In this document: positions 2,897 to 47,139 of the stretch, piece by piece
How positions within the stretch are numbered: position 1 is the first letter of the stretch
Layout of the letters: each line of letters opens with the position of its first letter
From: a virus
Virus record (IMG/VR): IMGVR_UViG_3300044959_000131
Coordinates: 64,001 to 128,000 of that record
DNA length: 64,000 bases
Direction: 5' to 3' (one strand)
Position numbers and translations under genes: made by a program
Notes under the pieces: generated by a model
Told to the model about the DNA's origin: nothing
What the model saw: the letters and a program-made list of their open reading frames with translations, nothing else
Database searches by the model: none

Positions 2897-3337
2897 CTAG
2901 AAGATGCCAAACAGTTTCGGATTTAATTCTTCAATCTCGATCTCGACTCTCGGATTCTTCTTGTCGAGGTGTTTCTCTTGAGAAGCCGCAAATGTCTGGG
3001 AATCGTCGATGTCCAACGCATCCCTGACACAGTCTTCCAAGAGCTTAATCCTGTTTGTGAGGTCAATCCTCTTATACCGAGACTTTGCCCTTCTTGATGG
3101 TGGCTTTGTAACGTCGTCCCAAGTTTCGTTGATGAGATTGTCGAAGAAGAACTTGAGATGAAGACCGAATATCCCCTTGGTGTTCATCTCCGAAATCTCT
3201 GGGAGGAACTGCTTGGCGAAGGCGGCAAATTTCTCTGCGTAGACTCGAGCTTCTTTTGTCAGGATGGTCCCTCGAATGTATATCTTGTTTGATGTTGGAG
3301 GTAGTTCGTTGAACACCATCTTCAAGTAGGTGCGCAT
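2897..3337 (-). CDS. rusA: RusA-like Holliday junction resolvase
   Basis: PPTSN N-terminal motif, IDLTNRIKLLEDC, DDSQ and terminal PRVEIEI match the RusA layout. Confidence 0.8.
   Translation of the reverse strand: MRTYLKMVFNELPPTSNKIYIRGTILTKEARVYAEKFAAFAKQFLPEISEMNTKGIFGLHLKFFFDNLINETWDDVTKPPSRRAKSRYKRIDLTNRIKLLEDCVRDALDIDDSQTFAASQEKHLDKKNPRVEIEIEELNPKLFGIF
3071..3080 (-). promoter_or_regulatory. TCGGTATAAG motif inside rusA, candidate internal promoter
   Basis: Exact match to the recurring motif; lies in coding sequence about 185 nt upstream of the next start. Confidence 0.4.
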
Positions 3338-4341
3338 CAGAGAATCTCCGCCCCTGCCTTGTAGAGCTTTTCGAAGAACTCATTTCTCTTGGATCCGGAC
3401 AGTCCTGATTCCTCTGCCGCCTCGAACTGGTTCCAGTTCCCGTACATCATCATCCGAATGGCTTTGATTTCAGAGCGGCTGAGTGTTGTTCCATACAGGT
3501 CGTACTCCTCGAATAGTGACCAAACTCTCGGCCAGATGCTCTTGATGATCTCTCCGACGGCATTTGCGTACTGTCGGATTTCCCATTGTGCAGCTGGTCG
3601 CATTCGAAGATTGAGGAATCCAAGCCAGTTCCTGAGATTGGCCTTCGCTCGCATCTTCGAGTAGCGAGAGACTGGGGTGTTGAGTCGAGCAACCTCCTTC
3701 GGAACCCCAGCCTTCAAGCTCTCTTCGTAGTTATCGTAGATCTCTCGCTGCTCTTCGACGAAAACATTCCTGATATCATCGAAGTTCGCTTCAATGTGAT
3801 CGTACGATGTAATGCTCGATTCCTGCTTGTTACCAGATTTCTTGGGTGTGAACCGATCAATCTCAGGGACGTAGTGAAGGTCTGGCATCTGAGAGTATCG
3901 AGCCGAGAACTCGTTGAAACTTTGGGTGCGGTGCCGCATCCACTCTCTGAACACCATGATTGGCGCCTGGACTTCGATGACGAGCTCACACATCTCGAAG
4001 GGTGTAGCATGCTTGTGGCGCCATAGGTTATCGAGAAGTCCAAGGTCCCCTTTCGGGAAATGAGTGAACTCTTGGGATGTGACCGGATTGTTCTCACACT
4101 TATCGCAGGTCTTTTCTGCTCCATCTTGGTTGAACGGAATCGGCTTTGACTTCTCTGGATCCGATTGGTCCAGTTTCCAGACGGACTCGCATGTCTTGCA
4201 GCGGTAGTATGGATCCCACGACACGAATCCCCTGCCTGTGCTCATCCGTGCGGCTTCGACGATGGTCTCGTCGGTGCCCATCGAATCGATGTACTTCACG
4301 TATCCATGGTCGAGAACTTTGAAGGTAGTTCCTTTTTCCAT
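3337..4341 (-). CDS. thyX: Flavin-dependent thymidylate synthase ThyX with a zinc-ribbon insertion
   Basis: ThyX signature RHRTQSFNEFSARY, plus AARMS, HATPFE, EVAR, LRM and AQWEIR. Confidence 0.95.
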   Translation of the reverse strand: MEKGTTFKVLDHGYVKYIDSMGTDETIVEAARMSTGRGFVSWDPYYRCKTCESVWKLDQSDPEKSKPIPFNQDGAEKTCDKCENNPVTSQEFTHFPKGDLGLLDNLWRHKHATPFEMCELVIEVQAPIMVFREWMRHRTQSFNEFSARYSQMPDLHYVPEIDRFTPKKSGNKQESSITSYDHIEANFDDIRNVFVEEQREIYDNYEESLKAGVPKEVARLNTPVSRYSKMRAKANLRNWLGFLNLRMRPAAQWEIRQYANAVGEIIKSIWPRVWSLFEEYDLYGTTLSRSEIKAIRMMMYGNWNQFEAAEESGLSGSKRNEFFEKLYKAGAEIL

Positions 4342-4351
4342 GATCTACTTT

Positions 4352-4558
4352 CTAAAGTGAATCTGCATACTTCTCAAACGCTTCTGTAGCCTCATCAAGA
4401 GACTCGAATGGGCCATATAGAAAGGCCCATGTTTCGTCGGAGAAGTACCATCCAGCTTTTGTTACACCAGACCCTGGCTCGTACTTTTTGAGATCGTCTT
4501 CTGAAATGAACATGAGTGGGCTTCTGATGTTTAGCTTATCTTCTTGTCTTTCACTCAT
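4352..4558 (-). CDS. Hypothetical protein (68 aa)
   Basis: Fills the operon gap; GWYF...YGPFES aromatic pattern. Confidence 0.65.
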   Translation of the reverse strand: MSERQEDKLNIRSPLMFISEDDLKKYEPGSGVTKAGWYFSDETWAFLYGPFESLDEATEAFEKYADSL

Positions 4559-4814
4559 TTTCTTCTGCCTCGGCGAGTCTTTTGTACATCATGTCCATCG
4601 CTTCTTTCGTAGGAACCCCCTCATGAAGTGAGTGGTAATGGCTCGCTGCGTGTGTGCCGTTCTTCTTGATTAGGACGTAGCCAATCGAGCTGAAACCGCG
4701 AGAGGCATGACGATTCAGTTTTACAATGGCCCATTTCTTACCCTCCTTGACGACTTCCGGATTGAGGACATCAAAGTCCTTTCCGTAGTACATCTTCAAC
4801 CACTGCGCCGACAT
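4551..4814 (-). CDS. Hypothetical protein (87 aa)
   Basis: GAAGGAG site upstream; overlaps the next gene. Confidence 0.7.
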   Translation of the reverse strand: MSAQWLKMYYGKDFDVLNPEVVKEGKKWAIVKLNRHASRGFSSIGYVLIKKNGTHAASHYHSLHEGVPTKEAMDMMYKRLAEAEENE

Positions 4815-4834
4815 CTACTTCTCCTTCAATGAAG

Positions 4835-5497
4835 TCAACAGGCTTTGGGCCGGTCGAATGTAGGTAGTTTCTTCAACATTTTGTCTACTTCTTCGTAGAG
4901 CTGAGACAGAGATCCAGTATTGTTGATGGTGTAGTCGAAGTCATCATCGGTCAATGACTTCTGCTCTTCTTCAGATGAGTGTCCTTTCAGACCTACAAGG
5001 CCAATAGCACCTGGCCTAAGAACTCGGACTACGAAACCGTTTGTCCTCCTACGAATTTTATCGACCTCGTTCTTGAATCGAACATCTGAGAAGACGACTC
5101 CTTGTCTATTTCGAGACATGAGGCTTCTCCACCAGCTAGGCTTCGATACGCCTTTCTTCGGGTCGTAGTGCATGCCACGAGACAAGATGTCGTCTGCGAC
5201 TTTGAGGCCGTAATTTATCCACGTATCAAGGTACAGCGAACGGCCCCACTCTGTCCCAAGAGTCTGTAACGCAACTCTAGGAGATAGATATCCCTTCCCG
5301 GTTGGGTATCTGAAGTCTGGTGAGTTTCTCATGTCAGGCGGACCCCACAACTGCAAATCGCTGAAGCCGTATACTTCTTTGCAGATTCGCTTGAGTGGGT
5401 CTGCGAGTGCAACCTTCACGAAACGATACTTTTTGACGAGGTAGTCGGCGATTGTGTCCTTGCCGGAACCAGATTGTCCGAGAATTCCAATAATCAC
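4835..5497 (-). CDS. Deoxynucleoside monophosphate kinase (T4 gp1-like)
   Basis: IGILGQSGSGKDT P-loop, ADPLK, PRVALQTLGTEWGR and SDVRFKNE. Confidence 0.9.
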   Translation of the reverse strand: MIIGILGQSGSGKDTIADYLVKKYRFVKVALADPLKRICKEVYGFSDLQLWGPPDMRNSPDFRYPTGKGYLSPRVALQTLGTEWGRSLYLDTWINYGLKVADDILSRGMHYDPKKGVSKPSWWRSLMSRNRQGVVFSDVRFKNEVDKIRRRTNGFVVRVLRPGAIGLVGLKGHSSEEEQKSLTDDDFDYTINNTGSLSQLYEEVDKMLKKLPTFDRPKAC

Positions 5498-5499
5498 TC

Positions 5500-12864: not shown

Positions 12865-13929
12865 CTAAGATGTGTATTGCTGCCTCCGAAGAGGTCCTTG
12901 ATATACGAATTGAGTTGATGACAACACCATTTCTCGAAGTTGCTCTAACGGGTAATCGTCAGGTTGTGTATTGTTGTGGTGTATAGGGTATTGAAGAACC
13001 TTCACTCTCCCGTACATCGGTTTCCAGAGAAGATTTCCTACCCGTTGCGTAGCCCTCCTTCCAGCCTCGTCGTTGTCGAAACATAGTACCACGGTTCCGC
13101 CGAGACGGTGAATTAATCTTTGCTGTCGCTCCGATAAGTAACTTCCCATCGCAGCAACCGTGTTCTTGAACCCAGCTTGAATCATCCACAAACAAGCTTT
13201 GAATCCTTCGACGATGTAGACCGTGTCATCTTGGTCTGACATCTCGACGATCCTTGGAAACACTCGATTGAAGTTCCACAGGAAGTCATGGTTTTCGCAT
13301 TTGTAGCCAGGGTACTGTTCATCGAACCATTTACCGAAGTCGCCTTCGATCCACAGTGAGCCTCGGCGGTGACCACCCTGGTATACCTTGTACTTCGGAT
13401 ACTGTCCCTCCTGTGTCGCGCCCCCAGAGATGCCAGCGAGATTCCCGTAGACATCTCTCAGTGGGTACGTGATGCGATTGTTTTTCCTATCGAACCCGAT
13501 CTCCATGTCCTGCAAAAGGTTCGGGTCGAACCCTTTTTGGACGAGCTGTAGAGGCATCCAATCAAAGACTCCCAGTATTGCCTCTGGCAGTACGTAGTCG
13601 GCCTTGAATGGATCCTTATCCGAGAAGAAGTTATCGATATTTGATTTGTAGATCTCCCTTTGACGTTCTAACTCAGGTCCGATGACGGCGAGTTCTGCGT
13701 CGATTGTTGCTCTTTGTACACCGAGTAGCCTGAGAAGTCGTCTCAGGTCTCCGCTTTCATGGCACGCAAAGCAGTTGAAGATTCCTCCTTTCACGAAGTT
13801 AACGCCGAACGACGGATTCGTTTCCTGCCCGCCTTTGTGGAACGGACATCTGCAGACGATGTTGTTCCCACTTACCTTGAACGGTCCTGGCAAGTATCGT
13901 CCAAGCAAGGCAAGGATCTGGTCTTTCAT
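12865..13929 (-). CDS. dnaG: DNA primase (CHC2 zinc finger plus TOPRIM)
   Basis: CPFH...PSF...CFAC, YIVEGFKA and LCFDNDEAG. Confidence 0.93.
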   Translation of the reverse strand: MKDQILALLGRYLPGPFKVSGNNIVCRCPFHKGGQETNPSFGVNFVKGGIFNCFACHESGDLRRLLRLLGVQRATIDAELAVIGPELERQREIYKSNIDNFFSDKDPFKADYVLPEAILGVFDWMPLQLVQKGFDPNLLQDMEIGFDRKNNRITYPLRDVYGNLAGISGGATQEGQYPKYKVYQGGHRRGSLWIEGDFGKWFDEQYPGYKCENHDFLWNFNRVFPRIVEMSDQDDTVYIVEGFKACLWMIQAGFKNTVAAMGSYLSERQQRLIHRLGGTVVLCFDNDEAGRRATQRVGNLLWKPMYGRVKVLQYPIHHNNTQPDDYPLEQLREMVLSSTQFVYQGPLRRQQYTS

Positions 13930-15365: not shown

Positions 15366-15407
15366 GTAATCTCTTCCCCTCAACGAGTGAAGATTGAAAG
15401 GGTCCCT

Positions 15408-15435
15408 GACGGCTGAGGCTTACGCCTCAGCCGTC
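15408..15435 (-). promoter_or_regulatory. 12-bp hairpin with a GNRA (GTAA) tetraloop in the helicase leader
   Basis: GACGGCTGAGGC-GTAA-GCCTCAGCCGTC on the minus strand, intergenic, no U-tract. Confidence 0.65.
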
Positions 15436-15442
15436 GGTCTTC

Positions 15443-15452
15443 CTTATCCCGA
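15443..15452 (-). promoter_or_regulatory. TCGGGATAAG motif, candidate phage promoter for the helicase-primase-SSB unit
   Basis: Intergenic, just upstream of the leader hairpin and the helicase start. Confidence 0.6.
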
Positions 15453-15526
15453 AGAATGATGGTTTCTTACTATCGCCTTCGTTCAGAAGGCGGTGCCCAT
15501 ACTACTCTTCGAAGTGTCCGAGTCAA

Positions 15527-15832
15527 CTAGAGGCCTGGTATCTCATCCTCTAGAGGCATTTCGTGTTCATGGACTCTATCGGTAGTAGGTCCATCGGAGA
15601 ATACGACCGTGCAGATGTCCTTCTCCATCGAGTTGATGAGCTCGTTGAACTTCGTTGCGGTCTCATCGCTCCATGTGGAGAATGTCCCAGATCCAAATAG
15701 CTCGCCAGTTGTCGAGTTCATCAATACAAACTTGGCCTCGACCCCAGCACCTGGGATTTGTGGTCTTGTTACGAGGGTAAGCTCGACAACCTTGACCGCG
15801 TCGATTCTGCAGGTTCCTTGTCCCTTTGTCAT
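15527..15832 (-). CDS. Hypothetical protein (101 aa)
   Basis: Operon-packed ORF with an acidic C-terminus. Confidence 0.7.
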   Translation of the reverse strand: MTKGQGTCRIDAVKVVELTLVTRPQIPGAGVEAKFVLMNSTTGELFGSGTFSTWSDETATKFNELINSMEKDICTVVFSDGPTTDRVHEHEMPLEDEIPGL

Positions 15833-15833
15833 C

Positions 15834-17580: not shown

Positions 17581-17582
17581 TC

Positions 17583-19488: not shown

Positions 19489-19501
19489 TTGTACCTCCTA
19501 C

Positions 19502-20125: not shown

Positions 20126-20160
20126 TGAACCTCCGAATGATAAGTCCGCACTGCAAAGTA

Positions 20161-20170
20161 CTTATCCCGA
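20161..20170 (-). promoter_or_regulatory. TCGGGATAAG motif at the head of the replication module
   Basis: In the divergent intergenic gap, 36 nt upstream of ATG 20125. Confidence 0.65.
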
Positions 20171-20201
20171 CAGTTTGGCCTTTATTGGTAACCCGTTTTG
20201 A

Positions 20202-20231
20202 TTGACCGAGACCCTGAATAGGGCTTAAACT
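20202..20231 (+). promoter_or_regulatory. Sigma70-like promoter facing the virion module
   Basis: TTGACC-N18-TAAACT, about 30 nt before ATG 20263. Confidence 0.5.
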
Positions 20232-23607: not shown

Positions 23608-23613
23608 TCAACG

Positions 23614-26975: not shown

Positions 26976-27158
26976 TCATTCTTCCTCGGTCTCCGTCTCG
27001 TCGACAGCGTCTTCGTCGTTTTCTTCGTCTTGCTCAGTCGGATAAAGAATTTGCCCCAAGATCGAGTTCATCAAGTCTTCTTGGAACATGTCCAACTGAG
27101 TAACTTCTTTTGGCACTGTCAGGCCTCCGATTCTTGAGGCCAGCGTATCGCTGACCAA
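26976..27158 (-). CDS. Possible small protein with an acidic tail
   Basis: Ends EQDEENDEDAVDETETEEE. Start uncertain; 27089 or 27071 are also possible. Confidence 0.4.
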   Translation of the reverse strand: MVSDTLASRIGGLTVPKEVTQLDMFQEDLMNSILGQILYPTEQDEENDEDAVDETETEEE

Positions 27159-27161
27159 CTT

Positions 27162-27171
27162 CTTATACCGA
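27162..27171 (-). promoter_or_regulatory. TCGGTATAAG motif at the head of the antisense island
   Basis: In the divergent gap upstream of the RNAP gene. Confidence 0.6.
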
Positions 27172-27190
27172 GGCCTATTGAGGTTCTTCG

Positions 27191-27220
27191 TTGACGTTAT
27201 TTACGAGCAGACTGTATTCT
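27191..27220 (+). promoter_or_regulatory. Sigma70-like promoter upstream of the RNAP gene
   Basis: TTGACG-N18-TATTCT. Confidence 0.55.
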
Positions 27221-27314
27221 GCCGTCCAAGGCTCAACGACCTCAGATGCGTAGAGGTAGAGCCTGGCAAGCCATAACCCACCTACGCATAGTGGGCGACA
27301 TTAGAGAGGGCACC

Positions 27315-30300
27315 TTGTCGACGCTAACACCAGAGGGTTCTTTCGAAATTCTCAAGAACAACGTCGTACGCGCCATCTCTTCCTACTTCCCCTACGAGGG
27401 AAAACAGAGGAAGTTGGAGCTACACAAAGTCTGGGTTGATGACAAACTTCATACTGATGACATCAAGTCACAGACTGAGGCAAAGGACCTAGACAAGACG
27501 TGGGGCGTACCAGTCAAGGCAGATGTCTCTCTCGTCGACAAAACGACAGGCAAAGTCATCGATCGAAAGACGATGACCATTGCCAGATTACCGAAGATGA
27601 CGAACCGGTACGGGTTCATCGTCGATGGGAATGAGTACCAGATCGACCATCTCTTCCGTTTGAAGTCCGGGGTGTACGCCAGAATTCAGGACAACGGCGA
27701 CCTGGAGTCAGAGTTCAACCTCGTCAAGGGACCTGCTGGTAACAGGTTCTCAATCCTCCTTGAGAGAGAGTCCAAGAAGTTCTTCCTGAAGCAGGGGGAC
27801 GCAAAGATTCCACTATACCCAATACTCAAGTCTCTAGGTGTATCAGACGATGAGATTGAGAAGAGTTGGGGAAAGGAAATACTCGCTGCCAATCGACCAA
27901 AAACCGAAGAGAAGACCTTAAAGAGTCTTCAGACCTTTTGGAAGAAGACGTCGTTCGAAGACCAGACGGAGCCGAGTGATTTAGGTGGTTATGCCCGCTA
28001 TGTACACGACTTCTTCGATAAGACGGTCCTTCGACCAGACACAACAAAGATCACTCTTGGAAAGCCAGCAACTAAGGTTGATGGTTCTGTTCTTCTGACG
28101 GCCGCGAACAAGATTCTCGGTGTTTCTAGAGGGACCCATCAGCCAGACGATAGAGACAGCCTTGCGTTCAAGGAGATCGTATCGATAGAGGACTTCCTGC
28201 CAGAGAAGATTGAGCGATCCATGAGGACGATTCGTGGAAAGCTCCGTAACACGATTGACCTCAAAGACAAGAAATCTGTCTCTGAAGTTTTGTCTACTGA
28301 CCTTTTTGCTCGCCCAATCCGTGAGTTCTTCACAAAGGGCGGCTCTTTGACGGAGAGGCCTGACCAGACGAATCCTATTCAAATGATGTCTGGTCACAGG
28401 AAGACGACGTTGATGTCTTCCGACCTTGGAGGAATCAAGAAAGAACATTCCATCACGGATGAGATGCGTGTCATCAATCCGAGCCACTTTGGGTTTCTAG
28501 ACCCAATGCATACCCCGGAGTCAGAGAAAACAGGCATCACTCTACATCTGGGAATGGCGGCTAGGAAAAATGGAAAAGATCTTGAGACTCCTGTCTTCAA
28601 CGTCAAAGAAAACAAGATTCAATACCTAAATGCAACAGACTTTCATAACAGTCATGCTGTTCTACCAGACCAGGTTCGCTGGGTCGGTGGCAAGCCTGTT
28701 CCGATAGCCGAAAACGTCAAGATGAAGCTCCCAGGTGGGAGCATCGAGGTTCGACCATTCAGAGAAGCTCAATACGTCATGCCGTCCGCAAAGGGCATGT
28801 TCGACATCGCTTCGAATCTCATACCTTTCTTACCATCGAACCAAGGCAACCGTGTTTCGATGGCTGATAAGCAGATGGAGCAGGCCATCTCTCTAAAGTA
28901 TAGAGAGGAGCCTCTCGTACAAACCAAGACCGACCATGCGGACCCGAATCTGACATTCGAAAAAGTTCTCGGTGGGTTCACATCTCATAGAGCTCCAGTC
29001 TCAGGTAAAGTCGTCTCCGTAAAGAACGATTCAATTACCATCAGTGACGGTAAGAAAAAGCACCAAGTTCATCTCTATGAACACTTCCCCCTCAACGACC
29101 CAAAGGGGATGATGCACTCAGAGCCTGTCGTGAAGGTCGGAGACACGGTCCGACAAGGACAGGTTATTGCTGACAACAACTTCACCAAGAATGGAACGCT
29201 CTCGCTTGGAGTGAATCTTCGTGTCGGATACATCCCTTACAAGGGCTACAACTACGAAGATGGTATCGTTATATCTGAGAGCGCCGCAAAGAAACTCACG
29301 TCCGAACACCTCTATAAGAAGAAGATCGAACTCGATCCTGAGAACGACGTCATTTCAAAGAGCAAGTTCATCGCTTATGCTGCTACCAAAGCCAATCAGC
29401 TAACAAAAGAGCAGCTTGATCTATTGGACGATGATGGAGTCATTCGAGTTGGTTCCAAGGTTCGTCCAGGTCAAGTTCTGATTGCAGCAGTCGGTAAGAA
29501 CCTTACGACACGCCAAGGTAGTGCTCTCGCAGCTCTAGGAAAGAGGGCCTTTCAGCCGTACAAGGATAAGTCACTTGTATGGGACGAAGACCACGTTGGC
29601 GAAGTCGTAAAGGTCATCAAAGATCCATCTGGAAAAGGGGTCAAGGTATACGTCAAAACTGAAGAGCCACTGGTTGTAGGTGACAAGTTGTCAGGCCGTC
29701 ACGGTAACAAAGGAATCGTGACGATGATCCTTCCTGACCACGAGATGCCGTTCACCATAGACGCCGACGGAAAACGACGTCCACTTGAAGTCCTTCTCAA
29801 CCCAACAGGTGTTCCAACACGTATCAATGTTGGTCAAGTTCTGGAAACGGCGGCCGGTAAAATTGCTGAGAAGACAGGAAAGCCGTACATCGTCAATAAC
29901 TTCTCAGGCCCGAACACGAACTACCGTGAACAGGTACTGAAAGACCTTCGTGCTCATGGCCTTAGAGACGAAGAGCTTGTCTACGACCCAAAGGACCCGA
30001 AAAGGCCACTTGGCTCGGTTCTCGTCGGTCCTCAGTATCTTTTGAAGCTTAAGCATCAAGTTGAGAAGAAGCTCACAGTTCGTGGAGGTGGGACGGATGT
30101 TACCGGTCGTGGACTTCCATACGATATAGATAGGACCCCGACAAAGGGAGGAGAGAGAGGGGGCCAAGGCTTTGGAGCCCTCGACGTCTACGCCCTTCTT
30201 GGACATGACGCTCGCCATAATCTTCGTGAGATGGCGACTCAAAAATCCGACTTCCAAGACATGACGTTCTGGAACATGGTCCAAGAAGGCCATGAACCAC

Positions 30301-33300
30301 CTCCCCCGAAGCCGCCGTTCAGCTACGAAAAGTTTGTCAGTCTACTGAAAGGTCTCGGAGTCAACGTCGAAAAGAAAGGAACGGCTCTTCAACTCTCTCC
30401 ACTCACAGACCGTCATGTCATCGAGATGGCTGGAGGCCATAAGGGTGAGTTGAAGAATCCACATCTCGCCCTTCGAGCTAAGGACCTGAAAGAAGAACGT
30501 GGTGGTCTGTTCGACCCAGTTGCGACTGGCGGTATCGTTGGAGACAAGTGGAGCTATATCAAGCTCACGGAGCCGATGCCGAACCCAATCTTCGTCGGCT
30601 CAAACAACCGTCCTGGACCCATTCCGGCTCTACTTGGATTGAAGCTCAAAGAGCTTGATGAGGTCATGAAAGGCGTTCGACAGATCGACGGTAAGACAGG
30701 TGGCATGGCCATATACGATGCCTTGAAAAAGGTTGACGTCGACAAAGAACTCGCTGCTCTTCGTGAGAAGCTTCCTACACTCACAGGTGCAGCTCTCGAC
30801 CGTGCGAATAAGAAGTTCAAATATCTGTCGGCTCTGAAGGAAGCAGGTCTGAAGCCTCATGAAGCGTACGTCATGAACGTAGTTCCGGTCATCCCTCCGG
30901 TGTTCCGACCTGCTACCGTCACACAAAATGGCGATGTTCAGTACTCGTCTTTGAACGGACTATACAAAAACATCGCCATACTCAACAACAAGCTCAGCGA
31001 AGTAGATCCAAAGGTATTCTCTGAAGAACACAGGTCTCCTCTTCGCTGGCAGCTCTACGACAGCCTGAGGGCTCTTCAATCGGTTGGCGGTTCCGTCGGC
31101 TACGACATCGACTCTCCAGGAAGCAAGAGAAAGTTAAAGGGAATCCTCGACATCATAGGTGGAGGAGAGGGTGAGCAGCCGAAGGAAGGCTATTTCCAGT
31201 CCAAGCTGGTCAAGCGAAGGCAGAATCTATCCATCCGCTCAACAATCGTTCCAGAGCCAAAACTTGGAATCGATGAAGTAGGTATTCCAAGAGGCGCAGC
31301 GATGGAGTTGTACAAGCCATTCGTTGTAGCCGAGCTAGCTCACCACGGCTTTGATCCTCTATCTGCTCAGCAAGAGATGAGGAACGGAACGAAGGCTGCG
31401 TACGACGCACTTGAGAAGGTCATCAAGGAACGGCCTCTTCTTCTCAAACGCGATCCAGCTCTTCACAAGTTCTCGATCATGGCCTTTACACCTAGGCTCG
31501 TAGAGGGAAAGGCCATTCAGATTCATCCTCTAGTTACTGGTGGATACAACGCCGATTTCGACGGTGACACGATGGCCGCAACTGTCCCTCTAACAAGAGA
31601 GGCCGTCGAAGAAGCGAAGAAGATGTTTCCTTCGAAGAACCTCTTCTCCCCTACAACCGGTGGTGTAATGTATTCGCCGACTCAAGAAGCGCTCCTCGGA
31701 CTTCATCTTCTTTCGAAGTGGGGCAAGCCTATCGGCAAAACATTCTCAAACCCACTCGAGCTGAACAAAGCTGTTCAGAGAGGAGAGGTTCACCCAACAG
31801 ACGTCGTAAAGGTAGGAAACAAGGAAACGACATTTGGACGATTGCTTCTTGAGTCTAGAATGCCAAGGGACTTCTACCTCAATAAAGACATTCTCCACAA
31901 CCCATCATTCGTTATCGACAAGAAGACACTCAATAGCCAAATCATCACACCTCTTGCTAAGAATCACACTCGAGAATTTGCTTCCGTCGTTGACGAATTG
32001 AAGAATCTCGGAAATGAGTATTCCTTCAAGATGGGATTCTCTTTCGGACTCAAGGACCTCGAAACAATCCCTCAAAGGGACGTAATACTCAAGGGCGCAC
32101 ACAGAGAGGCCGAGGCTGCAAGACGCTCAATTAAAGATAAGGATGCGCTGAACACCAAGCTCATCGACATCTATCAAAAGGCGACAGCTAAACTTGAGGA
32201 GGCCGTAAAGAATACACCGTCCGATAATCGCCTCGCGACGATGGTTACCTCAGGAGCTCGCGGTAAGCTAGAACAGCTACGACAAATGATTGCTGCTCCG
32301 ATGTTGGTTCAGGATTCCCAGAACAACATCATCCCAACACCTATTACTAAGAGCTACGCAGAGGGTCTGGACATTGGTGACTACTGGCTCGCCCAGCACG
32401 GTGCGAGAAAAGGAACTCTTCAGAGAGTACTTGGAACTTCAGAGCCTGGGGTCGTCTCAAAGGACATCATGAATACAACGATGTCCACTCTCATCGTCTC
32501 ACCCGATTGCAAGACGAATCATGGCCTGCTGATGGATGTTACTCACAAGGATATCGTAGATCGATTCACTGCGAAGCCCTACAAGTTGAAGGATGGAACG
32601 ATCATCAAGGCAGGAACACTTCTAACTCCAGAGATTCTGAACCGACTCAAGAACTCAAAAATTGACAAGGTCCTGGTTCGAAGCCCTCTTAAATGCAATC
32701 ACGGAGATGGAATCTGCGCGAAGTGTTTTGGGTTGAACGAGTCTGGAAAGCTGCACGACGTCGGCACAAATATTGGCGTGCTCGCTGGTCAAGCTCTGTC
32801 AGAACCAGCCGTCCAAATGGCGATGGACGCATTCCACACTGGCGGAGTCGCAACGGGTCGTGGATCTCTGTCCGTAGATAGGCTCACTAGACTTGGAGAT
32901 ACCTTGAGAATGCCGAAGAAGTTGAAGAACTCGGCCACCCTAGCTCGTGTAAGCGGAAAAGTTACGGACATCAAAAAGGATGCCGTCGGAGGTGTCGACA
33001 TCTTCATTGGTGGAGAGAGGCACTACGTTCCAAAGCATCTCGTGTCTCCAGACATCAAGATTGGAACCGAGGTGAAGAAGGGCATGCCAATATCAAAGGG
33101 GTTTATCAACCCTCACCACCTCCTTCCACTGACAGACATCCATACCGTTAGAAACTTTCTCACAGACGAGATGTACAGCGGACTGTATGAGAAAGAAGGT
33201 GTTAGAAAGAGAAACGTCGAAGTAGTGGTACGTGCTCTTACCAATCTCACGAAGATAAAGGATCCAGGTTCGAGCACATTCATACACGGAGATGTGGCCC

Positions 33301-33575
33301 CTACCTCTATCGTTGAGGAGTTCAACCGTAACCTGCCAAAGGGAAAGAAGCCAATTGTTCATGAGCCCATGCTGAGAAGCATTGAACAGGTCCCATTGAT
33401 CGGTTCTACAGACTGGATGGCTCGATTGAACTACCGAGAGCTGCACAACACAATACAGCAAGCAGCGGCTCAGTCTTGGAAGTCCGATATCCACGGCAGA
33501 CATCCAATTCCGGGTCTGGCGTTTGGTGCTGAGTTTGGGAAGCCGCCGCCCGGCAAGCCGAAGGGTGCCTACTGA
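27315..33575 (+). CDS. rpoBC: Single-polypeptide two-barrel RNA polymerase (beta-beta' fusion)
   Basis: Beta motifs GDKLSGRHGNKG, LLNPTGVPTRINVGQ, YLLKLKH, GGQGFG. Beta' motifs RSTIVP, KRDPALH, catalytic NADFDGD, SGARG, RSPLKC...CAKCFG and trigger loop GQALSEPAVQMAMDAFHTGG. No internal stop. TTG 27315 follows GAGAGGG (the track starts at ATG 27246). Confidence 0.95.
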   Translation: MSTLTPEGSFEILKNNVVRAISSYFPYEGKQRKLELHKVWVDDKLHTDDIKSQTEAKDLDKTWGVPVKADVSLVDKTTGKVIDRKTMTIARLPKMTNRYGFIVDGNEYQIDHLFRLKSGVYARIQDNGDLESEFNLVKGPAGNRFSILLERESKKFFLKQGDAKIPLYPILKSLGVSDDEIEKSWGKEILAANRPKTEEKTLKSLQTFWKKTSFEDQTEPSDLGGYARYVHDFFDKTVLRPDTTKITLGKPATKVDGSVLLTAANKILGVSRGTHQPDDRDSLAFKEIVSIEDFLPEKIERSMRTIRGKLRNTIDLKDKKSVSEVLSTDLFARPIREFFTKGGSLTERPDQTNPIQMMSGHRKTTLMSSDLGGIKKEHSITDEMRVINPSHFGFLDPMHTPESEKTGITLHLGMAARKNGKDLETPVFNVKENKIQYLNATDFHNSHAVLPDQVRWVGGKPVPIAENVKMKLPGGSIEVRPFREAQYVMPSAKGMFDIASNLIPFLPSNQGNRVSMADKQMEQAISLKYREEPLVQTKTDHADPNLTFEKVLGGFTSHRAPVSGKVVSVKNDSITISDGKKKHQVHLYEHFPLNDPKGMMHSEPVVKVGDTVRQGQVIADNNFTKNGTLSLGVNLRVGYIPYKGYNYEDGIVISESAAKKLTSEHLYKKKIELDPENDVISKSKFIAYAATKANQLTKEQLDLLDDDGVIRVGSKVRPGQVLIAAVGKNLTTRQGSALAALGKRAFQPYKDKSLVWDEDHVGEVVKVIKDPSGKGVKVYVKTEEPLVVGDKLSGRHGNKGIVTMILPDHEMPFTIDADGKRRPLEVLLNPTGVPTRINVGQVLETAAGKIAEKTGKPYIVNNFSGPNTNYREQVLKDLRAHGLRDEELVYDPKDPKRPLGSVLVGPQYLLKLKHQVEKKLTVRGGGTDVTGRGLPYDIDRTPTKGGERGGQGFGALDVYALLGHDARHNLREMATQKSDFQDMTFWNMVQEGHEPPPPKPPFSYEKFVSLLKGLGVNVEKKGTALQLSPLTDRHVIEMAGGHKGELKNPHLALRAKDLKEERGGLFDPVATGGIVGDKWSYIKLTEPMPNPIFVGSNNRPGPIPALLGLKLKELDEVMKGVRQIDGKTGGMAIYDALKKVDVDKELAALREKLPTLTGAALDRANKKFKYLSALKEAGLKPHEAYVMNVVPVIPPVFRPATVTQNGDVQYSSLNGLYKNIAILNNKLSEVDPKVFSEEHRSPLRWQLYDSLRALQSVGGSVGYDIDSPGSKRKLKGILDIIGGGEGEQPKEGYFQSKLVKRRQNLSIRSTIVPEPKLGIDEVGIPRGAAMELYKPFVVAELAHHGFDPLSAQQEMRNGTKAAYDALEKVIKERPLLLKRDPALHKFSIMAFTPRLVEGKAIQIHPLVTGGYNADFDGDTMAATVPLTREAVEEAKKMFPSKNLFSPTTGGVMYSPTQEALLGLHLLSKWGKPIGKTFSNPLELNKAVQRGEVHPTDVVKVGNKETTFGRLLLESRMPRDFYLNKDILHNPSFVIDKKTLNSQIITPLAKNHTREFASVVDELKNLGNEYSFKMGFSFGLKDLETIPQRDVILKGAHREAEAARRSIKDKDALNTKLIDIYQKATAKLEEAVKNTPSDNRLATMVTSGARGKLEQLRQMIAAPMLVQDSQNNIIPTPITKSYAEGLDIGDYWLAQHGARKGTLQRVLGTSEPGVVSKDIMNTTMSTLIVSPDCKTNHGLLMDVTHKDIVDRFTAKPYKLKDGTIIKAGTLLTPEILNRLKNSKIDKVLVRSPLKCNHGDGICAKCFGLNESGKLHDVGTNIGVLAGQALSEPAVQMAMDAFHTGGVATGRGSLSVDRLTRLGDTLRMPKKLKNSATLARVSGKVTDIKKDAVGGVDIFIGGERHYVPKHLVSPDIKIGTEVKKGMPISKGFINPHHLLPLTDIHTVRNFLTDEMYSGLYEKEGVRKRNVEVVVRALTNLTKIKDPGSSTFIHGDVAPTSIVEEFNRNLPKGKKPIVHEPMLRSIEQVPLIGSTDWMARLNYRELHNTIQQAAAQSWKSDIHGRHPIPGLAFGAEFGKPPPGKPKGAY

Positions 33576-41791: not shown

Positions 41792-42115
41792 TCAAACTAC
41801 CCTTTCAGACAGCTCCACATACATTTGATAGAGCTCGTCAAGGTCCTGCTTTATCCCATTCACAGTGTCAACAGCGTTTTTGAGATCGACGTGTAACTGC
41901 CTGACTTGGCATCTCAGAATGTAGAGCTGTCGAATGACTTGTCTGTTAACGTAGCAGAAGCAATCTTGGCAGACAGCGGCAGGTTTCGAGAACCCATTCC
42001 ACAAAGACATTCGAACCTTGAGTGATGAGTCGCACACTACACATGGGATCAATGCGACTTCATCTGATGAGAAATTTCCTGCAGTATCTTTTCCTGTGCA
42101 CGTAATTGATAGCAT
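41792..42115 (-). CDS. Zinc-finger plus coiled-coil hypothetical protein
   Basis: CVVC...CQDC followed by heptads; 56-nt overlap with the RNase HII gene. Confidence 0.6.
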   Translation of the reverse strand: MLSITCTGKDTAGNFSSDEVALIPCVVCDSSLKVRMSLWNGFSKPAAVCQDCFCYVNRQVIRQLYILRCQVRQLHVDLKNAVDTVNGIKQDLDELYQMYVELSERVV

Positions 42116-42668
42116 CTTCCGAACTTGAAATTACGAGGCCGTACTTCCTTATGGCCTGTTCATGGTCTTTTGACCCATAGCCCTTATTCTTGTCCCATCC
42201 GTACTTCGGGTGTTTCTTTGACATCTGGGACATGAGCCTATCCCTCCATACCTTGGCGATGATGGAGGCAGCGGATACGTAGACGTACTTCAGGTCAGCC
42301 TTTGGCTCTACAATCTGGTTCCCAGTCCATGCTTGCACTTTGTGATTTCCATCAACGTAGAGAATTGTCGGCTTGCAGACGACGAGGTCATCAAGTGCCC
42401 GTTTGTAAGAAATCTGTAGGGCTTGTGATGGGCCCATCTTGTCTATTTCCCATGGCCAAGCGTGACCGAGTCCGACATCTAAAGATGCGGCTACTATGGA
42501 CTCGTATAGAGACTCCATCTTTTTAGACGTGAGCTTCTTTGAGTCTGTCACTCCGGGTGGTAAAAACTTGAGGTCTTTTTCCCGGAAGACGGCAACAGCG
42601 GAGATGTACGGTCCTGCCCACGCACCGTATCCAACTTCGTCGATGCCTCCGTATATGACTGACGGCAT
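42060..42668 (-). CDS. rnhB: Ribonuclease HII
   Basis: GIDEVGYGAWAGP, DSKKL, VDGN, KAD, AASIIAKVWRD and NKGYG. Confidence 0.93.
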   Translation of the reverse strand: MPSVIYGGIDEVGYGAWAGPYISAVAVFREKDLKFLPPGVTDSKKLTSKKMESLYESIVAASLDVGLGHAWPWEIDKMGPSQALQISYKRALDDLVVCKPTILYVDGNHKVQAWTGNQIVEPKADLKYVYVSAASIIAKVWRDRLMSQMSKKHPKYGWDKNKGYGSKDHEQAIRKYGLVISSSEDAINYVHRKRYCRKFLIR

Positions 42669-42688
42669 TCGTTAATCGCCTCTATTAT

Positions 42689-42698
42689 CTTATGCCGC
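42689..42698 (-). promoter_or_regulatory. GCGGCATAAG, variant of the recurring motif
   Basis: 8/10 match, 21 nt upstream of the rnhB ATG, overlapping the upstream TAA. Confidence 0.4.
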
Positions 42699-42995
42699 TG
42701 GATGTTCATCTCTTGGAAGTCCGAGCCTTCGTTTGATGATCACCTTCGTGGTCATTGAGGTTCCTTCGGACTCGACTTTTCCTTGTGGAACGGTATCGTT
42801 CTTCGCGGCATACTGCTGAAAGAGATTCCAGGTGAGCAGCATCCTTTTGCCTGATATAGGTTCACCAAATCTGAACTTGACGATGTACACCAATGGATTG
42901 ACAGTGGTTTGAAGTTCGAATGAAACACTCGTTCCAAGGGCTCCTTCCATTGAATGGCAAAATGATTTGAGCCAAGCGAGTGGTGGCGGTATCAT
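42690..42995 (-). CDS. Hypothetical protein (up to 101 aa)
   Basis: Fills the gap between rnhB and terminase; start uncertain (42995 or 42950). Confidence 0.55.
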   Translation of the reverse strand: MIPPPLAWLKSFCHSMEGALGTSVSFELQTTVNPLVYIVKFRFGEPISGKRMLLTWNLFQQYAAKNDTVPQGKVESEGTSMTTKVIIKRRLGLPRDEHPAA

Positions 42996-45858
42996 GGAAA
43001 GAATGCTAGTCGTTTCTTCAGATGATTATGACCGCAGCAATCGCGACGTCATTATTTCTGAGAGTGGTGAGCCTGAGCTTCCCGAAGAGTGGGACTACGA
43101 ACCTCAGGTCTTCGATGGGTTTCTCGACGACTCACAGCTTGCCAAGAAAAGCTCCGAGTTGATCGGTGTATACCCTTCTCAATTCGTCGAGTTTGCGATT
43201 CGTATACCCGACAAGAAGACTCAGCAATTAGTACCGTTCTCTTTTGAAAAACGTAGGTATCTTCGACTCCCATACGACACCCCAGCGAAGAGGACGCTTT
43301 ACAAGTGCGGGCGACAAGTTGAGAAGAGTACATTGTTGGGGAACAAGTGTTTGGCGTACTGCTGCATTATCAATGCATTCAATGTTTTGTACGTCGCCCC
43401 AACGAACATGCAAACAAAGACCTTCTCACAAGACCGTTTGAAGGAGCCCATCGAAACGTCCGATGTTTTGAAGTCTTGGACAACCCCCAAACTCAGCGAC
43501 AACGTATTTCTCAAGAAGTTCATCAATCGTAGCCAGATTACCCTCCGCTACGCTTACCACAACGCAGACCGTACTCGTGGTATCCAGGCAGACCTTGTTC
43601 TAATTGACGAGATTCAAGACGTCATCACGGACAATATCCCAGTCATCGAACAATGTGCCTCGCACTCCACATTCAAGCTCTTCATGTACTCAGGAACACC
43701 GAAGAGCTTCGACAACCCAATTGAGCATTACTGGACCAACTTCTCGACCCAAAATGAGTGGGTCGTTCCGTGCGATCGCCACGGCGTTCCAAGTGACCCA
43801 TCAACATGGTTCTGGAACATTCTAGGTGAGGAGAACATCGGTAAGAAAGGTCTCATTTGTTCGAAGTGTGGAGAGCTCATCCATGCACTGAGACCAGAAG
43901 CACAGTGGGCTTCCATGAACCCAGAGGTTCGAAAGAAGCTGACTGAGCCGTATGAGGGTTACCGAATCCCTCAACTCATGGTGCCGTGGATGGAGTGGAG
44001 CGAAATTCTCGACAGCTACGCTACATACCCTCGTCAGAAGTTCTTCAACGAAGTTCTCGGGATGTCGTACGACTCAGGAACCAGGCCCCTGACTCGGCAA
44101 GACATCATCGACAACTGCAGTTCCGACATTGTCATGTCTCAAGAAGGGTTGTCGAGAATTCGTTCGAAGATGAGTGGAGGGATGGAGGTTTTTGCCGGAA
44201 TCGACTGGGGTTGCCACGACGAGGAGACACGGATTCTCACCGATAGCGGCTTCAAATACTTTCGAGACCTGACCGACAACGACAAAGTCGCTCAATGGGA
44301 TCCTGATACACGGTTGATGTCATTCGTGTATCCGAAGGTCCGAACGGTCCGTGAATGGGATAAACCACTTCTCCATTTCAAGGCGAATGGGTTGGACATG
44401 ATGTTGTCCGACCCTCATCGAATGAGAGTGAGACCTCTCAATGATGATGGGACGGGAAAGTGGATTACGGAGCCAGCGAGTAAAACCGCAGAGCGTGGTG
44501 GCAACGTAAAATTCGTTGGGTACGTCGATTGGGACGGGTCCGAAGAAGAGTACTTCGTATTGCCCAGTCGGGACCAAACTACTGGTTACAGCGGTAGTGA
44601 AGATCGTATCTACCGCATGGATGATTGGTTGGAATTTCTCGGCTATTATTTGTCAGAGGGTTCTATCTGCTTTGATGGAGATAATCCATCATGCATCAAA
44701 CTATCTCATCGGGAATCCGTAAATCTTGAGCAGGCTCGTAGGATTGGAAGTCTGCTACAGCGGCTCTTCCCAAATGATCTATCTACGATACAACACCCAG
44801 AGACTGGTTACATCGATTGGACAATCTACGGTAAACAGCTCTGGAAGTGGGTTCATGACCAAGTCGGAAAGTTCGACGACGAGAAGAGAATACCGAGGAG
44901 ATTTCTGAATCTCTCGAAGCGCCAACTTCGAATTCTCTTCGATGCCATGATGCTTGGAGACGGAGGTGGCGGCAAAAGAAGAGGACGTACCAATGGTCGC
45001 TACTGCTCGACTTCCAAGGGTCTCTGCGAAGACTTCCAGGAGCTTTGCATCCGCCTAGGACTCCGTAGCACTCTGTCATTGCATAAGAGGGCTGAAGGAA
45101 ACCGTAAGGCCATATGGAGAGTTTCTTGGTCTCCTGGAAGAGACTTCGAATTCAACAACCCCAAGCAGAGAGTTAAGAGAGTTCCATACAATGGAAAGGT
45201 ATACTGTTGCTCCGTTCCATCTGGATACATCATCACTGAGAGAAACGGCTGCATCGCTTATCAAGGGAACACAGGAGAGAACACGTTTTCTGTGATGGCC
45301 CTTGGTACATACTTGGATGGAAAATTTACCATCTTCTACATCCACAGATTCGAAGGACAGGAGGTCGAACCACTCGTTCAACTCGACCTGATCGAGAAGC
45401 TGATTTACTACTGGGACGTCAGGCTTGTCGGAGTCGACTATGGCGGCGGCTTCGATCGTAACGATGCTCTTGCTAGAAAGTTCGGCAAGAACCGAATCGT
45501 GAAATATCAGTACTCTCAGCCAAGTCAGAAGGTGCGATGGGACGAGGGGCTGCACAGATTTTTGGTCCATCGGACAGAGGTGATGACTGACATTTTCACT
45601 GCCATAAAGAGAAGAAACGTTTTCAGGTTCCCGACCTGGGAGCAGTTCGAAGACCCATTTGGCAGGGACATGCTGAACATCTTCTCCGAATACAACGATC
45701 AACAGAGGCAGATCCAATACAAGAAGAGTCCAGACGCAACGGATGACTCATTCCACGCCATTCTTTTCTGCTTTCTTGCCTCGATGCTTCGACACCCAAG
45801 GCCGGACGTTTTGGTGCCGACTCAGAAGACGAATAGCTCGATGGACCATGACAGCTAA
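42967..45858 (+). CDS. terL: Terminase large subunit containing one intein (about 610 aa after splicing)
   Basis: Variant Walker A CGRQVEKST, Walker B LIDEIQD, SGTP, FFNEVLG, nuclease GIDWG and terminal DDSFHA. Real start may be ATG 42994 or 43003. Confidence 0.92.
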   Translation: MSQASGGGIMERMLVVSSDDYDRSNRDVIISESGEPELPEEWDYEPQVFDGFLDDSQLAKKSSELIGVYPSQFVEFAIRIPDKKTQQLVPFSFEKRRYLRLPYDTPAKRTLYKCGRQVEKSTLLGNKCLAYCCIINAFNVLYVAPTNMQTKTFSQDRLKEPIETSDVLKSWTTPKLSDNVFLKKFINRSQITLRYAYHNADRTRGIQADLVLIDEIQDVITDNIPVIEQCASHSTFKLFMYSGTPKSFDNPIEHYWTNFSTQNEWVVPCDRHGVPSDPSTWFWNILGEENIGKKGLICSKCGELIHALRPEAQWASMNPEVRKKLTEPYEGYRIPQLMVPWMEWSEILDSYATYPRQKFFNEVLGMSYDSGTRPLTRQDIIDNCSSDIVMSQEGLSRIRSKMSGGMEVFAGIDWGCHDEETRILTDSGFKYFRDLTDNDKVAQWDPDTRLMSFVYPKVRTVREWDKPLLHFKANGLDMMLSDPHRMRVRPLNDDGTGKWITEPASKTAERGGNVKFVGYVDWDGSEEEYFVLPSRDQTTGYSGSEDRIYRMDDWLEFLGYYLSEGSICFDGDNPSCIKLSHRESVNLEQARRIGSLLQRLFPNDLSTIQHPETGYIDWTIYGKQLWKWVHDQVGKFDDEKRIPRRFLNLSKRQLRILFDAMMLGDGGGGKRRGRTNGRYCSTSKGLCEDFQELCIRLGLRSTLSLHKRAEGNRKAIWRVSWSPGRDFEFNNPKQRVKRVPYNGKVYCCSVPSGYIITERNGCIAYQGNTGENTFSVMALGTYLDGKFTIFYIHRFEGQEVEPLVQLDLIEKLIYYWDVRLVGVDYGGGFDRNDALARKFGKNRIVKYQYSQPSQKVRWDEGLHRFLVHRTEVMTDIFTAIKRRNVFRFPTWEQFEDPFGRDMLNIFSEYNDQQRQIQYKKSPDATDDSFHAILFCFLASMLRHPRPDVLVPTQKTNSSMDHDS
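44212..45270 (+). mobile_element. Intein with LAGLIDADG homing endonuclease in terminase (353 aa)
   Basis: Starts CHDEETRILTDSGFK, ends YQGN before Thr+1; LGYYLSEG and MMLGDG blocks. Confidence 0.9.
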
Positions 45859-45899: not shown

Positions 45900-46316
45900 T
45901 CAGCGGCTTCCGGCCGAGAGACGTACTACTTTTCCCGATACGAGCTTCTCCTGCTCGTACTTGATGAAGCCCGGCAACTGCCGGGCACTCGGGATTATGA
46001 ACCGGATGCCCTCCCACAGCAGGATGAGTGCGACCGGTGTGACCGCTGCGAGTAACACAGTCACCGTCGCGCTCTTCATGCGCACTGCTGTGTGTTTGAC
46101 CCTCTCCCCGAATGTGGGATTGTACTGCTTCCCCCTCAGCTTGGCCGCGAGGGCGAACTTGCCCTCGCTTTCGAGATCCTTAGCGACCTCTTCTATGAAC
46201 CGATCCCACTCTTCCCGCGGGATTTGTATCATCTGCTTCGGAGTGACCGGTTCACCGGTCACTCCGTCGCGCGCTTCATTCCCGTTCATTTCGATGACAA
46301 CTGACTTCTTATCCAC
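45900..46316 (-). CDS. Predicted single-pass membrane protein
   Basis: GGAGGAG site before GTG; hydrophobic ATVTVLLAAVTPVALILLWEGIRFII. Confidence 0.75.
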   Translation of the reverse strand: MDKKSVVIEMNGNEARDGVTGEPVTPKQMIQIPREEWDRFIEEVAKDLESEGKFALAAKLRGKQYNPTFGERVKHTAVRMKSATVTVLLAAVTPVALILLWEGIRFIIPSARQLPGFIKYEQEKLVSGKVVRLSAGSR

Positions 46317-46369
46317 GATTGCTCCTCCGAATGAGGTTTACCAGGGACGTAAATTTCCCTGGCAACTTA

Positions 46370-46379
46370 CTTATACCTA
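46370..46379 (-). promoter_or_regulatory. TAGGTATAAG, variant of the recurring motif
   Basis: 9/10 match, intergenic, 54 nt upstream of GTG 46316. Confidence 0.55.
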
Positions 46380-46389
46380 GAGGATAGAA

Positions 46390-47085
46390 TTATTTGCTGG
46401 TCGATTCGCTCAATTTCTTGAAGAGCGTTCCCTTCTCTGATTCAAACTTCTCAAGAAGAGAGTCAGAAACTGGTGTCTTTGATACTTGGTGCCACATGAG
46501 TAATGTAGATCGAATCTTCTTTCGACCTTCATCAAGCTTCTTGTGAAGAATCTGAAGTGGCAGGCTGTTCTTGAAGTCTTCCCTCGTAGAGACATATCTC
46601 ATCTGCGCCAAGCAGAGTTTGAAGAAGACCTCGTATGGGTGCTCAAGTCCGAGAGACTCTTTGAGCATGTCAAGAGAAACTTCATCGAGACGGTCAAATA
46701 CGTCTGTTGCCCACGACTCAATCTCTTCATCTTTCCAGACCCCGGCGGCCAGGGCTTTCGAAGCTGCTGCGTAGAGCATCTTGGCCTCGTCGGCATTCGG
46801 ACGGAGGGGGTCATCCCGAATCTCCAGAATCCTCCTACACAGGGCCATGTCCTGTTCCAGTTTCAGTACTCTTCGCATTAAGATGGCGAAGTTCTTTCGA
46901 TTGAGAGCCGGGAGATCTGTGCCGGACTCGTTTGCGAGCTGCTCTACATCCTCACGGTTGAGGACAACGTGACCATCATGAAAGGACTTGCGTAGGTAGC
47001 CTCGCTTTACGTAGTTATGGATGGTACGCTTCGAACATCCAAGCCGGTTAGCGGCCTCGTCGAAGGTGTAGAAAAGGCTTCCCAT
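46390..47085 (-). CDS. DNA-binding protein with an N-terminal MerR/excisionase-type HTH
   Basis: YTFDEAANRLGCSKRTIHNYVKRGYL...NREDVEQL; GGAGGGAG site. Confidence 0.85.
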   Translation of the reverse strand: MGSLFYTFDEAANRLGCSKRTIHNYVKRGYLRKSFHDGHVVLNREDVEQLANESGTDLPALNRKNFAILMRRVLKLEQDMALCRRILEIRDDPLRPNADEAKMLYAAASKALAAGVWKDEEIESWATDVFDRLDEVSLDMLKESLGLEHPYEVFFKLCLAQMRYVSTREDFKNSLPLQILHKKLDEGRKKIRSTLLMWHQVSKTPVSDSLLEKFESEKGTLFKKLSESTSK

Positions 47086-47129
47086 GTCTCCCTCCGAAAA
47101 CTACCCTATTCTAGTCGCACACCGACAAC

Positions 47130-47139
47130 CTTATTGCGA
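47130..47139 (-). promoter_or_regulatory. TCGCAATAAG, variant of the recurring motif
   Basis: 8/10 match in the divergent gap, 45 nt upstream of ATG 47085. Tentative. Confidence 0.4.

Follow-up and report, generated by a model that had tools for sequence, protein, structure and literature searches.

Phages can set classes of viral genes apart from host promoters by a private consensus read by a phage sigma factor, as do SPO1 with gp28 and gp33/34 and T4 with gp55 at its late promoters (TATAAATA). These sigmas redirect the host core enzyme. The jumbo phages phiKZ and AR9 also have their own promoter code but encode the multisubunit RNA polymerase that reads it, an enzyme packaged in the virion for early genes (PMC7598289, PMC5312081). 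Such cellular-type polymerases consist of several polypeptides and have no sigma, whereas phages with a sigma use the host core (PMC7824862); phiKZ and AR9 promoters are short and AT-rich. Here we analysed a recurring word, GGNATAAG, in a 64,000-nt stretch of viral DNA (the window), bases 64001-128000 of the 176,945-bp record IMGVR_UViG_3300044959_000131 (CheckV completeness 93%). The word very probably forms the central part of a class of sigma70-type promoters that is specific to the phage and serves the non-structural strand, and with moderate confidence we attribute its recognition to the phage's own sigma factor and polymerase. Since the phage encodes both a bacterial-type RNA polymerase and a sigma, transcription by a private viral system probably starts from this word.

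The system differs from SPO1 and T4 in its consensus and in that the phage also encodes a catalytic beta-beta' polymerase. It differs from phiKZ and AR9 in having one fused polymerase chain, a sigma70-family factor and a bipartite promoter; packaging of the enzyme is proposed here by analogy only. A full-text literature search for GGTATAAG, and for phage sigma with virion polymerase and early promoters, found no description of the motif, and the paper on Salmonella phage Arash, a distant cultured relative, makes no mention of promoters (PMC10585845). Megablast of 20 kb against cultured phages found no close relative at the DNA level. Positions below are those of the window unless marked as genome.

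A short core found on one strand

The first-pass annotation, made from the letters of the window, had reported exact copies of the 10-mer TCGGKATAAG on the minus strand at 3071, 15443, 20161 and 27162, with about 0.1 copies expected. Our scan confirmed all four coordinates and the strand; shuffled sequences held 0.11 copies on average, and 0 of 100 shuffles reached four. With one mismatch allowed the window held 8 copies against 5.1 expected. As this is not above chance, the 10-mer is the wrong unit of the motif. When words upstream of minus-strand genes were ranked by k-mer enrichment, the strongest other than the Shine-Dalgarno (SD) sequence were GGATAAG, GTATAAG, GGGATAAG and GGTATAAG, the 7-mers and 8-mers of GG[GT]ATAAG ranking top. 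A scan of single-base variants found the third position free and G-G and A-T-A-A-G fixed. The conserved core is GGNATAAG, shorter than the 10-mer and joined by an upstream CAARW box, whilst the leading TC is only a weak preference. Thus the repeated word stood but its proposed extent did not. Upstream of plus-strand genes no word was outstanding in the k-mer enrichment, and a home-made Gibbs sampler run on upstream regions was captured by the SD sequence and gave no clean motif.

The core occurs seven times in the window, at 2259, 3071, 15443, 20161, 27162, 42689 and 46370, always on the minus strand. In the whole genome there are 24 minus-strand copies and none on the plus strand, where Markov models expect 4-6 per strand. 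The exhaustive scan that the first pass had proposed as its check therefore returned a one-stranded motif, not random placement on both strands. About 18 of these 24 copies lie in non-coding DNA, which makes up 9% of the genome (binomial P about 1e-14). In a non-circular test, a matrix trained only on relatives found 31 minus-strand sites and 1 plus-strand site at >=10 bits in the whole genome. A chance origin of the motif was rejected on these enrichment and strand statistics. An earlier manual scan of ATAAG sites had found none on the plus strand; this is right for the core but wrong for bare ATAAG, which shows no strand preference in the window (32 plus, 34 minus).

Individual sites were scored with a matrix trained only on other genomes. 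Six of the seven sites first listed reached 16-25 bits. Among them, the supposed variants at 42689 (GCGGCATAAG) and 46370 (TAGGTATAAG) contain the true core and score 21.8 bits each. The seventh, TCGCAATAAG at 47130-47139 (minus), scores 1.6 bits, which is background, and its membership is unsupported: it is a weak variant or a non-member. It lies 44 nt before the ATG of a helix-turn-helix (HTH) gene (46390-47085; HTH_17 match 5.6e-10) that begins a unit, a position calling for a promoter of some kind. The copy at 2259-2266 (minus; GGGATAAG) was missing from the earlier list. It is intragenic, has no upstream box, scores 3.3 bits and is probably a chance or weak copy.

Architecture of the probable promoter

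We aligned 83 sites from four genomes (this one and three relatives), anchored on the core. The consensus reads C-A-A-R-W, 14 nt, (T-n)GG-B-A-T-A-A-G, about 6 nt and a start G. The upstream box occupies -19 to -15, counted from the first G (C in 52/83, A in 56, A in 70, R in 63, W in 71). Further preferences, again relative to GG, are T at -2 (50/83), R at +8 (68/83), T at +12 (51/83) and G at +14 (44/83). This is the two-box geometry of a sigma70-family promoter: -35, 16-nt spacer, extended -10, -10 and start. Taking the G at +14 as the presumed transcription start, the core would span -14 to -7. The GG then falls in the extended -10, and the -10 element is B-A-T-A-A-G with the A at -11 kept. 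G at -7, where housekeeping promoters have T, is fixed in all GGNATAAG-matched copies of every genome, and single-base variants at -7 are neither enriched nor strand-biased. Position -12 is T in only 18/83 sites and otherwise G or C. The motif is thus a poor match to housekeeping promoters.

Extended -10 sigma70 promoters (TGnTATAAT with or without TTGACA) resemble the motif in having boxes about 16-17 nt apart, conserved bases just 5' of the -10, A at -11, T at -10, A-A at -9/-8 and a purine start about 7 nt downstream. They differ in that the motif has G rather than T at -7, GG for TG with a T two bases further up, G, C or T at -12, and CAARW in place of TTGACA. Neither TAnnnT with T at -7 nor the -35 TTGACA of housekeeping sigma70/SigA promoters is present.

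The nearest cellular consensus is that of sigma28/FliA, with -35 TCTAAAG and -10 GCCGATAA (PMC12784957). It shares ATAA (-11 to -8), a 'long' -10 reaching -14/-15 and, at almost equal distance, an A-rich -35. It has CCG before ATAA where the motif has GG-B, and the motif adds the invariant G at -7; CG at -13/-12 and a -35 TAAAG, by which sigma28/FliA promoters are known, are absent. These likenesses bear on whether the host RNA polymerase could read the motif through a housekeeping or FliA/sigma28-like sigma, perhaps with a phage co-factor. The sigma70-family geometry, the ATAA and the AAA-type -35 box resembling sigma28 promoters (PMC12784957), and the use of host polymerase by early genes of many phages would all fit such a reader. 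We consider it unlikely, given the bases at -7 and -12 described above and the replacement by GG-B of the CG of GCCGATAA that sigma28 needs. Because a housekeeping sigma needs T at -7, the invariant G suggests that the reader is the phage sigma and not the host sigma70 holoenzyme.

Variant cores GGTACAAG, GGTAGAAG and GGTATAAA were also seen at high-scoring, mostly intergenic sites with an upstream box (genome 7877, 27909, 166075, 166971, 168225 and 154797, minus); the site at 168225 heads the 153-168-kb minus-strand unit. T at -10 and G at -7 therefore tolerate rare changes.

Location of copies and stem-loops

All 24 genomic copies are co-oriented with minus-strand genes, their cores ending 20-55 nt before SD-preceded start codons, and nearly every minus-strand unit in divergent spacers is headed by a copy. 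In agreement with the first reading of the window, the copies at 15443, 20161, 27162 and 46370 are intergenic and that at 42689 overlaps the stop codon before rnhB. A GGTATAAG copy at genome 16790 precedes tRNA-Ala/tRNA-Val and is followed by a 21-bp stem-loop. A copy ahead of tRNA genes argues against a translation-related signal. The genome has 13 tRNA genes, all on the minus strand at 14016-22699, outside the window, and at least this pair of them stands behind the motif.

Stable stem-loops follow most copies that leave room for one (mean z = -2.5 against -0.4 in controls). In 33 of 74 cases their 5' ends fall 5-10 nt past the core, where transcription is predicted to start. Among the window sites, the loops behind 27162 and 46370 open exactly on the predicted +1, and that behind 15443 one base later. 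These structures are probably 5'-terminal and would stabilise the transcripts. Folding energy did not differ significantly between sense and antisense (118 sites, Wilcoxon P = 0.36; strong hairpins 35 vs 19).

Upstream of 18 of the 118 sites stands a terminator-like hairpin with TTTTAGC, compared with a 3.6% background, and hairpin, TTTTAGC and motif together read as a terminator-then-promoter cassette. The arrangement recalls the PeSL (promoter-early stem-loop) cassettes of T4-type phages, in which a promoter plus stem-loop is repeated between small non-essential genes of hyperplastic regions, but they carry a strong host sigma70 consensus promoter and a terminator stem-loop (PMC2839356), whereas most stem-loops here lie downstream, at the predicted transcript 5' end. 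Strong hairpins ending CTT(TT)AGC were seen directly 5' of the -35 box at genome 157029, 164677, 166329 and 167457 (minus); such cassettes, between small genes, recur in relatives L039, L064, L075, L086 and L088.

The strand specificity of the word, and its avoidance on the other strand (see below), would equally fit a signal in the RNA. An element acting in the transcript (processing, stability or anti-termination), or an operator for a repressor such as the HTH protein at 46390-47085, might also explain the adjoining stem-loops and the presence of the HTH gene in one island. We regard both as highly improbable. A second conserved box stands at a fixed distance across a non-conserved spacer, copies at the heads of divergent units leave little room for another promoter, one copy precedes tRNA genes, and the stem-loops start downstream of the motif, at the expected start site. 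The motif also has no dyad symmetry. The first-pass annotation had offered a promoter for a phage RNA polymerase or sigma-like factor, or alternatively an operator. The missing dyad, the strict orientation and the promoter geometry speak against the operator; the promoter is upheld, and its phage reader is what we infer.

The phage RNA polymerase and sigma factor

The plus strand of the window encodes a single-chain beta-beta' RNA polymerase (27246..33575), the only one in the genome. Its 2109-aa open reading frame (ORF) contains all Pfam Rpb2 and Rpb1 domains. The first ATG is at 27246 and distant relatives align from residues 20-36; from this alignment a start at 27315 seems likelier.

The genome encodes one divergent sigma70-family protein, outside the window (genome 38074-39039, plus; L025:1066-2031). 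It matched Sigma70_r3 at 28.1 bits (cut-off 25.3), with weak r2 and r4 matches in the right order. RpoD_Cterm aligned over residues 133-303, and a profile match to RpoS (7.5e-8) covered regions 2-4. All 50 listed Foldseek matches of its predicted structure were sigma factors (probability 1.00). Its ordered regions 2, 3 and 4 and its sigma fold place the protein in the sigma70 family; it falls far below the FliA family cut-off (30 vs 189.6 bits). Orthologues were found in 5/5 relatives, on the polymerase strand, and also in Arash and Vibrio phage D69. Every checked genome of the clade has one fused beta-beta' polymerase and one divergent sigma, both on the motif-free strand.

Aligned with RpoS, the phage sigma differs at the positions that contact the -10 and extended -10, which we take to be W433, Q437, T440, H455 and E458 (E. 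coli sigma70 numbering, for -12/-11 and the extended -10). The altered residues fit a non-canonical -10 specificity. The sigma gene lies inside the structural operon without a promoter of its own, both here and in Arash, and is here translationally coupled to the upstream gene. Mass spectrometry of purified Arash virions detected, among other proteins, abundant beta, beta' and sigma Gp10 (PMC10585845).

Directed towards the polymerase gene, and adjoining the minus-strand G(-7) promoter at 27155..27188 back to back, is a canonical sigma70-type promoter (27191..27220, plus; TTGACG, 18 nt, TATTCT). Nearly all of 17 relatives keep its TTGAC; in the -10 element TAnnnT, T, A and T are invariant. The conservation of TTGAC-N18-TAnnnT beside the motif indicates that the two promoter classes are distinct, and a host-type class that looks so different from the motif adjoining it also argues against reading of the motif by the host. 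Canonical sigma70 matches were fewer than in shuffles in the 14000-33000 part of the window (7 against a mean of 13.6 +/- 3.5), and TTGAC-N16-19-TAnnnT is rare.

The polymerase gene promoter also bears on a further alternative, in which the beta-beta' polymerase reads the motif through another specificity factor or as core alone and the phage sigma serves the TTGAC/TAnnnT class. The best matches of the phage sigma are of RpoD/RpoS type, TTGAC-N18-TAnnnT is conserved before the polymerase gene, and jumbo-phage polymerases function without sigma (PMC7824862). We judge this division of labour to be quite unlikely, since, apart from weak HTH matches, the search yielded no second sigma-like gene, and a two-part -35/-10 promoter is the kind recognised by a sigma that has regions 2-4. 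The residues at the -10 and extended -10 contacts likewise fit recognition of a non-canonical -10 by the phage sigma.

Conservation in relatives and cultured phages

A search with the polymerase protein found about 18 uncultured relatives at 54-78% identity. Counted on the anti-polymerase and polymerase strands respectively, GGNATAAG occurs 24:0 in this genome (G000) and 15:0, 12:1, 25:0, 24:1 and 15:0 in relatives G001, G002, G003, G004 and G005, a total of 115:2. Controls with the reversed word, run on the five relatives, counted 0-6 per strand. By the 115:2 total, the word is not only enriched on one strand but avoided on the other. In 17/17 relatives with the region available, the spacer between the polymerase gene and its divergent neighbour holds a copy, 57-92 nt ahead of the polymerase gene. 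Motif sites precede orthologous genes for five of six window sites (3071, 15443, 20161, 27162 and 42689), and the leaders have diverged. Orthologous sites were found for 20161 in G003, G004 and G001, for 15443 in G001, for 42689 in G003, and for 3071 in G003, G001 and G004.

The copy at 3071 is embedded in coding sequence (promoter 3064..3097, minus; core GGTATAAG 3071-3078, box TCAAG; 19.7 bits). It lies inside ORF 2897-3337, whose codons there are xGG-TAT-AAG (R-Y-K). Across four genomes the Arg codon invariably ends in GG, and Tyr, Lys and the Ser of the box are encoded only by TAT, AAG and TCA, whilst conserved residues flanking the copy use varied codons. The fixed codons point to selection on the DNA word rather than on the protein.

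Judged by the polymerase, the nearest phages in culture are Salmonella phage Arash and three Vibrio phages, at about 32% identity. In Arash the anti-polymerase (reverse) strand carries 36 copies of GGNATAAG and the polymerase strand 7, with controls of 7 and 8. The consensus of the 36 is GGTATAAGtAAagTGTAa (also written GGTATAAGtAAagTGTA), with SD and ATG within about 10 nt. In D69 the counts are 13:11. That a Salmonella phage shares the word with uncultured phages at only about 30% protein identity is a further point against a host reader: the word follows the phage sigma and polymerase, not a host.

A model for transcription of the non-structural strand

We propose that the motif drives essentially all minus-strand units, namely replication, nucleotide metabolism, RNase HII, small genes and the tRNA operon, whilst the strand with the structural genes, polymerase and sigma would be kept free of it. 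The phage sigma and the single-chain beta-beta' polymerase would read the G(-7) promoters, and many transcripts would begin with a stem-loop, probably acting as a 5' stabiliser. Our attribution of the promoters to a phage reader draws on the co-occurrence of motif, sigma and polymerase, on the non-sigma70 base at -7 and on the virion proteomics of a distant relative. Early transcription by a virion-delivered enzyme is favoured by analogy with Arash. Those virion proteins, together with the sigma gene in the structural operon, favour a virion-delivered holoenzyme that would begin early transcription at G(-7) promoters. A wholly self-contained system is a more tentative proposal, which we hold to be possible rather than probable. 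Polymerase and sigma would be made late, packaged and injected, and would start all early, replication and tRNA transcription, independently of the host polymerase, at promoters that the G at -7 makes orthogonal to the host.

Several observations weigh against this model. The polymerase gene carries the canonical host-type promoter, so the host polymerase may also contribute, and virion-delivered and host-made enzyme both fit. Alternatively, the phage sigma might recognise the TTGAC/TAnnnT class. No promoter was found before the sigma gene in the six genomes searched. The stem-loops are not universal, and their sense/antisense folding asymmetry is not significant. Vibrio phage D69 (OZ195729.1) has a homologous polymerase and sigma without enrichment or strand bias of the word (11 vs 13). 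The code is therefore not universal among polymerase-plus-sigma phages, and on these counts the D69 promoter code must differ.

For a lineage that has both a polymerase and a sigma, the motif supplies a concrete promoter code. It should make annotation of transcription units possible in many uncultured phages of 140-210 kb, and it hints at how a sigma pocket retuned from T to G at -7 could hide viral promoters from the host. The code is directly testable because the cultured Salmonella phage Arash uses the same word. The compact single-chain polymerase, sigma and short orthogonal promoter would together be a candidate tool for orthogonal gene expression.

Predicted promoters of the window and neighbouring features

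The promoter at 20154..20187 (minus; 25.2 bits) has its box CAATA at 20183-20187, core GGGATAAG at 20161-20168 and predicted start at 20154. It heads the long minus-strand replication unit, from the gene at 19502-20125 down to about 736, and an SD and ATG (20125) follow 35 nt past the core. Within this unit an internal promoter (15436..15469, minus; core GGGATAAG 15443-15450; 16.4 bits) stands ahead of the DnaB-like helicase gene (13926-15383; DnaB_C Pfam match), and a 12-bp stem-loop (15406-15437; hairpin z = -6.95) directly follows it. The promoter at 27155..27188 (minus; 17.3 bits), with its box at 27184-27188, core GGTATAAG at 27162-27169 and predicted start G at 27155, heads a small minus-strand island (25709-27116).

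The promoter before rnhB (42682..42715, minus; core GGCATAAG 42689-42696, box CAAGA 42711-42715; 21.8 bits) has as its TAA the stop codon of the upstream ORF and lies 20 nt before the rnhB ATG (42060-42668; RNase_HII Pfam match 1.3e-33). The remaining promoter (46363..46396, minus; core GGTATAAG 46370-46377, box CAAAT; 21.8 bits) precedes a 138-aa gene (45900-46316). An 8-bp stem-loop (46340-46363; hairpin z = -4.6) starts at its predicted start.

Genes for replication and nucleotide metabolism occupy the minus strand of the window, among them those for a family A DNA polymerase, the DnaB-like helicase, a DnaG-type primase, a RecA-like ATPase, ThyX, UDG and RNase HII. Encoded on the plus strand are a terminase with an intein and a 1674-aa intein-bearing protein, along with head/tail genes. 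A plus-strand unit at 20263 is preceded by TTGACC-N18-TAAACT, similar to the canonical promoter of the polymerase gene. TGTAyyCT, conserved before the polymerase gene, was tried as a plus-strand class and rejected, being neither strand-biased nor enriched elsewhere.

The polymerase leader contains a hairpin (27238-27258, plus; A-CCTC...GAGG-T, with a loop around TGCG) flanked by conserved AAGGCYCGA and TAGRGCC. Between 12 and 15 of the 17 phages preserve its five outer pairs, and there are a few compensatory changes. RNAalifold predicted nothing on the alignment, and the hand-drawn helix, with 75% paired cells, is suggestive only, the same value being reached by 49/500 shuffles.

The N-terminus of the sigma (…LEWALQKLSA…) resembles an F-x-D-E-L-x-K-I-A tag that several plus-strand proteins, in and near the head region, carry at their own N-termini, with examples on small proteins at 23107-23607 and 55085-55345. 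Such a tag may be a capsid-targeting or protease signal. Lastly, the 1674-aa protein (49249-54273, plus) has several Hint/intein and LAGLIDADG domains, and the large terminase (42967-45858, plus) has a LAGLIDADG-type insertion.

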